A stretch of 64,000 nucleotides of DNA from Rhizodiscina lignyota (Eukaryota). The stretch is taken from positions 2,852,001 to 2,916,000 of the forward strand of contig ML978121.1 of the NCBI GenBank assembly GCA_010015805.1. Direction: 5' to 3'. Under the pieces are notes generated by a model. It searched no databases, had not been told where the DNA came from, and saw nothing but the letters and a program-made list of their open reading frames with translations. The translations under genes and the position numbers were made by a program. Below, piece after piece: positions 44,251-45,602 of the stretch (its first letter is position 1; the number at the start of each line of letters is the position of its first letter).

Positions 44251-45602
44251 ATGCACACTTCCAACGTCTTCTGTGTCCTGGCCCTTGCCTTGGGCTCCAT
44301 CGCCGCCCCTGTGGCAGAGCCGGAGGCCAAGGCTGTGCCGGATGACTATGGAAACTACGGAAAATACGCTGATTACGGTGAGCTCCAGCAGCAAAGCGCA
44401 TTGTGATAAGCCTGAGTCCTCTTCTAAAGTTCATTATAGGATCTTACTGTGCCCCTGCAGGCGGATATGCCAGCTGTGAGCTAACTACATCACGCTGGAG
44501 GCTTTCAAATAGGATTCAATTTCTCTAATTAGATTTTACAGATGGTAGCTATAAGAAACGCAGTGCCGACGCAGCCCCCGAAGCCGCTCCAGAGGCAAAA
44601 GCAGGCTACGGATCCTACTCACCGTACAAATCATACTCCCCATACGCTTCGTACGGTATGAGATCGATTCTCCTGTTCTCAATTTTAACGCTGCTAACAT
44701 GCTCTCTGTACTTTCCAGGCAGTTATGAGAAGCGCAATGCTGAAGCAGAGCCTGAAGCGGCTGCAGAAGCAAAACCAGGCTACGGATCATACTCACCATA
44801 CAAATCGTATTCGCCATACGCGTCGTACAGTATGAAGTCGGCCATCCCCGTACCAAGGCTTAACGCTGCTAATATGCTCTTTACGCTCACAGGCCACTAC
44901 AAGAAGCGCAGTGCTGAAGCAGAGGCCGAAGCAGAGGCCGACGCAGCTCCAGATGCCAACTCGTACGGAAGCTACCCGTCGTACAAATCATATGCGCCAT
45001 ACGCGTCATACGGTACGAAGCTGACCCTCTTATACCAAGGTTAAACATGGTTAATATTCTCTTTATTATTCACAGGCCACTATAAGCGCGCCGCTGAAGC
45101 AGAGCCCGAAGCGGCTCCTGAAGCGGCTCCGGAGGCAAAGCCTGGCTACGGAAGCTATGCACCGTATGCGACATATGGTACGAAGCCTATTCTCATGGTA
45201 CTCACTTTGGACGCTACTGACGTACTATGTGTACTTTCTAGGCACCTACAAGAAGCGTAGTGCAGAGGCCGAGCCTGAAGCTGCTCCCGAAGCTGCCCCT
45301 GAGGCGGCTCCAGATGCGAAACCTGAGGACTACAAGGAGTATGGATCCTACGCACCATATGCGACATATGGTAAAAAGCTCCTCTCCTTGTTTCAAGCTT
45401 AAAAGCCACTAATATTCTCTCTGCGCTCTCCAGGCGACTACGGAAATCCGCAATACAAGGACTGTAAGCCACTCTTCCTCAGCTTTTTTGAACTCAACCA
45501 TCGTACTAACGAAGACCAACAGATGGCAAATACGGCACATATGATAACTACAAGCGTGATGCGAAGGCTGAGCCGGCACCAGTGGCTGTTGCTGAGGAAT
45601 GA
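44251..45602 (+). CDS. Secreted Kex2-processed repeat protein (KEP), putative RiPP precursor, 282 aa, 9 exons: 44251-44377, 44440-44475, 44542-44655, 44719-44829, 44893-45012, 45076-45177, 45242-45370, 45434-45463, 45523-45602
   Basis: Manual splicing at eight 59-66 nt GT..AG phase-1 introns gives an open 849-nt CDS: signal peptide, then six [X-A/X-P spacer + Tyr-rich core + (K)KR] units. Confidence 0.92.
44542..45433 (+). repeat. Five tandem exon+intron repeat units (about 166-192 bp) within the precursor gene
   Basis: Exons share aagaagcgcagtgc..gaagcggctcc..tacggatcctac..ccatacgc.tc.tacg; introns 3-7 are 63-64 nt and mutually similar. Confidence 0.9.

Follow-up and report, generated by a model that had tools for sequence, protein, structure and literature searches.

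A two-gene module for a ribosomally made peptide is probably encoded in the stretch of Rhizodiscina lignyota DNA analysed here (64,000 nucleotides of contig ML978121.1, called the window below): a secreted precursor with several cores stands beside its own membrane-anchored DUF3328 oxidase, and the whole appears dikaritin-like with a maturation of the pheromone type. The precursor gene (44251-45602, + strand) was modelled by hand from three-frame translation and splice signals, and is predicted to consist of nine exons (44251-44377, 44440-44475, 44542-44655, 44719-44829, 44893-45012, 45076-45177, 45242-45370, 45434-45463 and 45523-45602) encoding 282 amino acids, 45 of them tyrosine. Its eight introns are all GT-AG, 59-66 nt long and in phase 1. 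An identical model, exon for exon, was returned by a splice-aware script with composition weights chosen with prior knowledge of the precursor family. The repeat period is 174-183 nt (exon plus intron), and since most introns fall in the codon right after a tyrosine near the end of a repeat, one repeat equals approximately one exon and one intron. As all eight introns (between 44378 and 45522) share phase 1, gain, loss or skipping of any internal exon would leave the reading frame intact. Two micro-exons (36 nt, 44440-44475; 30 nt, 45434-45463) insert Pro-containing breaks in cores 1 and 6. Neither intron 3 nor intron 4 contains an in-frame stop codon, a possible trap for annotation.

The first 18 residues (44251-44304, +) form a probable signal peptide, recognised by eye as a hydrophobic stretch in the translation; a hydrophobic N-terminus is also visible in the translations of related precursors, and the protein is presumably secreted. 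Precursors of the alpha-factor type are processed by Kex2, Kex1 and Ste13, and the X-Ala/X-Pro dipeptide code read by the last of them is textbook knowledge. The corresponding STE13 signature was defined by Le Marquer in 2019 for Kex2-processed repeat proteins, or KEPs (PMC6339444). Two hallmarks of this group are found in the window precursor, namely repeats separated by dibasic sites (six KR sites lie between the repeated units) and in-register X-Ala/X-Pro runs after KR. The sequence-only reading had parsed these runs dipeptide by dipeptide, and the six spacers and the C-terminal tail do read exactly as it gave them. All on the + strand, they comprise six dipeptides in spacer 1 (44305-44340), seven in spacer 2 (44562-44603), seven in spacer 3 (44736-44777), eight in spacer 4 (44910-44957), nine in spacer 5 (45090-45143) and eleven in spacer 6 (45259-45324), followed by the tail (45558-45599), which has no core and consists of six dipeptides plus EE. 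Alanine or proline occupies 54 of the 55 second positions in spacers and tail, the lone exception being the final EE.

Shuffling within segments gave P values of 0.0005 to 0.015 for each segment, with a product of 4e-18 which is too strong, because the repeats are duplicates and the segments are not independent. The even length of all spacers, also claimed earlier, holds in the parse, but it is partly circular since the end of a spacer is defined by the place where the parse stops. An independent check on the register is given by the first tyrosine of each core, as in all six cores the parse halts one or two residues ahead of it. For spacer 1, signal-peptide cuts after residue 16, 18, 20 or 22 all yield DDY, and cuts after 14, 15, 17, 19, 21 or 23 do not parse. 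The tail keeps the register as well (six of seven dipeptides) without any core to release. When Kex2, Ste13 and Kex1 trimming was simulated, the peptides began with DDY, GYG, GYG, NSY, GYG and EDY, in agreement with the four N-termini (DDY, GYG, NSY and EDY) that had been foreseen. At the level of the translated sequence, the inferred processing of the precursor by these three proteases is supported.

The same simulation releases six peptides of 28, 21, 20, 21, 14 and 35 residues, all encoded on the + strand. Core 1 (44341-44552) has eight tyrosines and one cysteine, spans the first micro-exon and is followed by KKR; core 2 (44604-44729) has seven tyrosines and ends in Tyr-Glu; cores 3 (44778-44900) and 4 (44958-45083) have seven each, core 5 (45144-45249) has five, and core 6 (45325-45551), which spans the second micro-exon, has eleven. 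Tyrosine stands at nearly each third residue, with 37 of the 44 Tyr-Tyr gaps being of three residues, so that a core holds 5-11 tyrosines and 4-9 YxxY pairs. Neither isoleucine nor tryptophan occurs in the cores. With Kex2 cutting and the basic residues stripped by Kex1, five of the six peptides are predicted to end in tyrosine. As linear chains the six would have monoisotopic masses of 2997.17, 2374.99, 2325.99, 2424.03, 1532.65 and 4180.74.

Related precursors allow the trimming register to be examined more widely. From 27 modelled precursors 19 were kept for the spacer count, the others (L048, L053, L065, L069, L079, L088, L089 and L097) being incomplete, incorrect or devoid of any dibasic site. 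Thirty-five related cores follow a dibasic site, and 25 of them have at least six residues before the first tyrosine (long spacers). In a simulation of Ste13 trimming, 16 of these 25 end within three residues of the first tyrosine, where 0.4 would be expected by shuffling, and exactly two residues remain ahead of it in 14 of the 16. In the other ten cores the dibasic site lies close before the tyrosine, and six of the ten also leave two residues; spacer trimming and a near dibasic cut thus look like two routes to one mature end. Both counts favour the predicted N-termini. Alanine or proline is found at 105 of 140 second positions in related spacers versus 8 of 30 in complete core-less tails (positions not being independent, and L050 and L060, which reach contig ends, and L052, with one residue, being left out of the tail count). 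The length of the spacers ranges from 6 to 11 dipeptides in the window versus 0 to 9 in the relatives. Nine of the 25 long spacers fail to parse, two of them perhaps through model errors, and counted by locus, 7 of 13 have a parsed spacer and 6 have none; the parsed loci include look-alike pairs and may represent perhaps five lineages. It can be said that the dipeptide code is real and common in this precursor family, but optional: because several members are without it, it represents one way of reaching the mature end and does not define the family. One subgroup (L089, L092-L094, L104, L112 and L113) lacks Ste13-type spacers and has acidic, Ala/Glu-rich sequence following each of its Tyr cores, which is possibly a follower-type variant of the same module.

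The genome of R. lignyota encodes a single membrane-anchored Kex2-like protease and a single DPP-IV, a type II membrane protein that has its anchor at the N-terminus and contains the motif GWSYGG; it also encodes a Kex1-like S10 carboxypeptidase whose membrane segment is C-terminal. Such peptidases are expected in any filamentous ascomycete, and their presence is merely permissive for the processing described above; the single DPP-IV could be vacuolar.

The second gene of the module is a UstYa/DUF3328 gene (41810-42719, - strand; PF11807, E 1e-53) with one intron (42421-42475) and a product of 284 amino acids, identical after splicing to an NCBI protein record of R. lignyota (P0001). The protein has two HxxHC motifs, at 164 and 201, and a predicted membrane helix near residues 42-65. 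Residues H164, H167, C168, H201, H204 and C205 are invariant in an alignment of 38 sequences, and a search by sequence and by fold found no solved structure matching the enzyme. DUF3328 proteins have been described as membrane-anchored dicopper enzymes with paired HxxHC motifs and a catalytic part in the organelle lumen, which hydroxylate, halogenate or cyclise (PMC12435403). The start codons of the two genes diverge from an intergenic spacer of 1531 bp (42720-44250), which presumably houses a shared promoter. The window combines features by which dikaritin genes are recognised: a DUF3328 gene adjoining the precursor, two HxxHC motifs with a membrane anchor, and tyrosine in the cores. The YxIx core and tyrosinase of the ustiloxin/phomopsin type are not among them, as the cores have no isoleucine and no tyrosinase, transporter or regulator was seen among 46 ORF pieces scanned, which are part of the ORFs of the window. 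The remaining neighbours are genes of the housekeeping type and an S53-type protease with a pro-kumamolisin domain (45939-47893, -), whose gene ends about 340 bp from the precursor stop codon. A multicopper oxidase (15590-17143, +) and a ferric-reductase-like gene (28904-30019, -) lie 13-27 kb from the module with no sign of linkage.

The two genes occur as a conserved pair. The enzyme is a member of a tight DUF3328 subfamily, for which 546 proteins were found at E <= 1e-20; among these, the best 120 share at least 53% identity and come from many ascomycete genera, with homologs of 53-74% identity in Aspergillus, Botrytis, Sclerotinia, lichen fungi and black yeasts. A metagenome scan with the enzyme gave 80 loci, of which 35 had at least 2.5 kb upstream and fell into 25 distinct groups (the other 45 were left out of the linkage count). 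At least two YxxYxxY matches on the divergent strand within 3.5 kb were present at 23 of the 25 distinct loci, head-to-head as in the window. Control stretches (17 downstream and 17 far upstream, both strands) never had more than one match, and on the same strand at least two were found in 3 of 25 loci. The precursor at one locus (L067) is built of single YxxY units and escaped the YxxYxxY pattern; at another (L053) neither the pattern nor gene modelling detected a precursor beside the enzyme. In the suggestion that pheromone-type maturation is joined here to DUF3328 modification, the DUF3328 link is thereby backed more strongly than the sequence-only reading could know. Short precursors with a single core and one KR or none also stand beside the same enzyme subfamily (L051, L063, L067, L069, L077 and L097); repeat-based KEP searches would miss them.

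Within the own genome no paralog of the precursor was found elsewhere. UstYa yields 76 exon matches there in about 36 regions, and only 2 of the 35 other DUF3328 regions reach two YxxYxxY matches versus 20 in the window. At these other regions the repeat precursors have at most three dipeptides after KR among the matches listed. About a dozen carry other KR repeat precursors (e.g. L118, L119, L123, L124, L125, L126, L137, L141 and L149); that of L118 has a Cys-containing core after two or three dipeptides and that of L125 a single YGxY unit. The genes flanking the module (the S53-type protease and seven other queries) had no tblastn match in the 80 related loci, 29 of them at least 8 kb long, and since none of them recurs, the unit consists of two genes with their own enzyme subfamily.

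On these grounds the following course can be proposed. The precursor would enter the secretory pathway, as its N-terminus suggests, and lose its secretion signal. Oxidation of tyrosine by the lumenal copper enzyme is placed before the Kex2 and Kex1 cuts, after which DPP-IV trimming and the release of six peptides would follow. Kex2 would cut after the six KR sites and Kex1 would strip the basic residues, a step of established chemistry that very probably applies here. A Ste13-type DPP-IV would then take off the X-Ala/X-Pro spacers and halt one or two residues before the first tyrosine, which the comparative data make likely. Equally likely, judging by the gene linkage, the divergently encoded DUF3328 enzyme would oxidise the (Tyr-x-x)n cores. 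The spacers would be disposable linkers that fix the N-terminus, the conserved information lying in the Tyr ladder and the enzyme. Side-chain cross-links between tyrosines at i and i+3 are tentatively put forward as the likeliest reaction, by analogy with the YxxY in the core of asperipin-2a, where one link joins two tyrosines three residues apart; since enzymes of the DUF3328 kind are capable of hydroxylation and halogenation too, cross-linking does not follow from the enzyme alone. Membership among the dikaritins, predicted here from the genes, awaits a cyclised product. A more speculative and rather doubtful extension would be that in filamentous ascomycetes one copper enzyme stitches the whole Tyr(i)-Tyr(i+3) ladder, with up to 4-9 links per chain and both ends set by pheromone-maturation proteases, giving a polycyclic class whose conservation would resemble that of a housekeeping signal or a structural unit and not the patchy occurrence of a toxin cluster.

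Other explanations accept part of this evidence. The same proteolysis might supply structural material of a wall, sheath or spore matrix, with the enzyme hydroxylating tyrosine or linking chains and the acidic spacers keeping the precursor soluble until the Golgi. The cores are indeed long, of low complexity and not constant in number; poly-Pro linkers separate the Tyr blocks in many relatives, a single long core is present in some, the module is minimal and occurs widely, and the design of KR, spacer and Tyr/Gly-rich segment recurs in unrelated-looking proteins; Rep1 of Ustilago is a structural precedent in the part of the literature consulted. This is nevertheless judged rather unlikely, as N-termini fixed two residues before tyrosine and a C-terminal tyrosine fit defined molecules, and the characterised DUF3328 products, in the consulted parts of the sources, are discrete small compounds (PMC12435403, PMC6514808). 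It is also conceivable, but unlikely, that the spacers serve mainly as leaders for enzyme recognition and that Ste13-trimmed peptides are at most intermediates, the modified cores being cut to short YxxY units by other peptidases such as the adjacent S53-type one. The precursors of known dikaritins have acidic flanks, and peptidases encoded in their clusters have been implicated in trimming them to 4-9 residues (PMC10540207, PMC9233826); four relatives (L089, L092, L112 and L113) keep the acidic Ala/Glu stretch after the core and not before it, and the pro-kumamolisin-domain gene abuts the precursor. Set against these points, the spacers vary in length and keep the register alone, unlike a binding motif, and the S53 gene was among the flanking genes with no match in the related loci. 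That the gene encodes an unmodified sex pheromone of the alpha type beside an incidental DUF3328 gene is highly improbable: the Kex2, Kex1 and Ste13 signals do match those of the yeast alpha-factor precursor, and an Atlas search gave a weak feature match to MF_alpha clusters (0.77, all matches being below 0.9; a lead only), but six different 14-35-mers without tryptophan are unlike the short, near-identical, unmodified cores of alpha-factor, which has no DUF3328 neighbour, one DUF3328 subfamily is linked at 23 of 25 loci here, and annotated pheromone genes almost never have such a neighbour in the part of PMC7329392 consulted.

The preferred reading of a two-gene module with a dedicated oxidase can be placed among known systems. 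With KEPs bearing the STE13 signature the precursor shares a (putative) signal peptide, repeated cores and KR followed by X-Ala/X-Pro runs; those proteins, as far as the consulted sources describe them, give short, linear, minimally modified peptides, unlike the long Tyr ladders and dedicated DUF3328 enzyme of the window. Removal of X-Ala/X-Pro from mushroom KEPs was seen by mass spectrometric peptidomics by Vogt in 2022 (PMC9769878). The signature is described as absent from precursors of the ustiloxin, phomopsin and epichloecyclin type in the consulted part of PMC6339444. In asperipin-2a the core FYYTGY is made bicyclic, with ether links from Tyr side chain to beta-carbon, by a single DUF3328 protein (PMC6514808). 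Its cluster (aprA/aprY), as described in the part consulted, resembles the present module in its multi-core KR precursor, single DUF3328 gene, YxxY in the core and C-terminal tyrosine, and differs in a core of 6 residues versus 14-35 with 4-9 YxxY pairs; in addition, no transporter or reductase gene was found here, and the likeness is one of features. The fragment cut out by Kex2 is far longer than the final product in the known dikaritins (PMC10540207).

The pairing of a DUF3328 gene with KEPs has been surveyed by Umemura in 2020, who found DUF3328 beside 22% of 7878 KEPs and, according to the consulted part of the paper, also beside 17 of 76 homologs of the basidiomycete precursors of the STE13 type, which gives the combination a computational precedent; product and role of most DUF3328-linked precursors are called an open question there (PMC7329392). 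Among the KEPs given in Table S2 of that work with DUF3328 in the vicinity, EAW08970.1 and EAW15449.1 (type 77) and ATZ56267.1, PMD64199.1 and TGO23062.1 (type 47) adjoin homologs of the present enzyme, an adjacent KEP being found for 5 of the 12 accession stems looked up. Table S2 lists accessions without sequences, so the identity of types 47 and 77 with the YxxY family follows from adjacency alone, and the consulted text of PMC7329392 holds no discussion, spacers or product for either type. The KEP table of PMC6339444 may already contain members of the YxxY family. A literature search covering few subscription journals, and including the consulted parts of PMC12048977 and PMC5006380, yielded no product, no YxxY ladder with DUF3328 and no Ste13-trimmed dikaritin; a search by locus tag found no paper.

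The processing code itself is already known, and of more value are the conserved two-gene module, the Tyr-ladder cores and the predictable masses. Because the dipeptide code predicts exact peptide ends and masses, the product of the subfamily, which is apparently very widespread and uncharacterised, becomes directly searchable by mass spectrometry. Processive cross-linking of the Tyr ladder, if real, would provide a new scaffold for peptides along with a useful enzyme. Trimming of the ladder by Ste13, if it occurs, would tie modified fungal peptides concretely to maturation of the pheromone type, a connection so far proposed only in general terms in the consulted parts of PMC7329392 and PMC9233826.

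Protein searches with the intron-containing reading frame of the precursor gave no matches. Searches with a profile built from five repeats produced 5 and 33 weak matches, which were driven by the spacers and were not counted as homologs, being mostly Gly/Tyr-rich KR-spacer proteins without a regular Tyr ladder; one (P0125) resembles the YxxY precursor family. Proteins P0121-P0124 and most of P0162-P0194 combine KR and X-Ala/X-Pro spacers with Gly/Tyr-rich cores that form no regular Tyr ladder, and we take them to resemble animal (arthropod-type) precursors, which would mean convergence.
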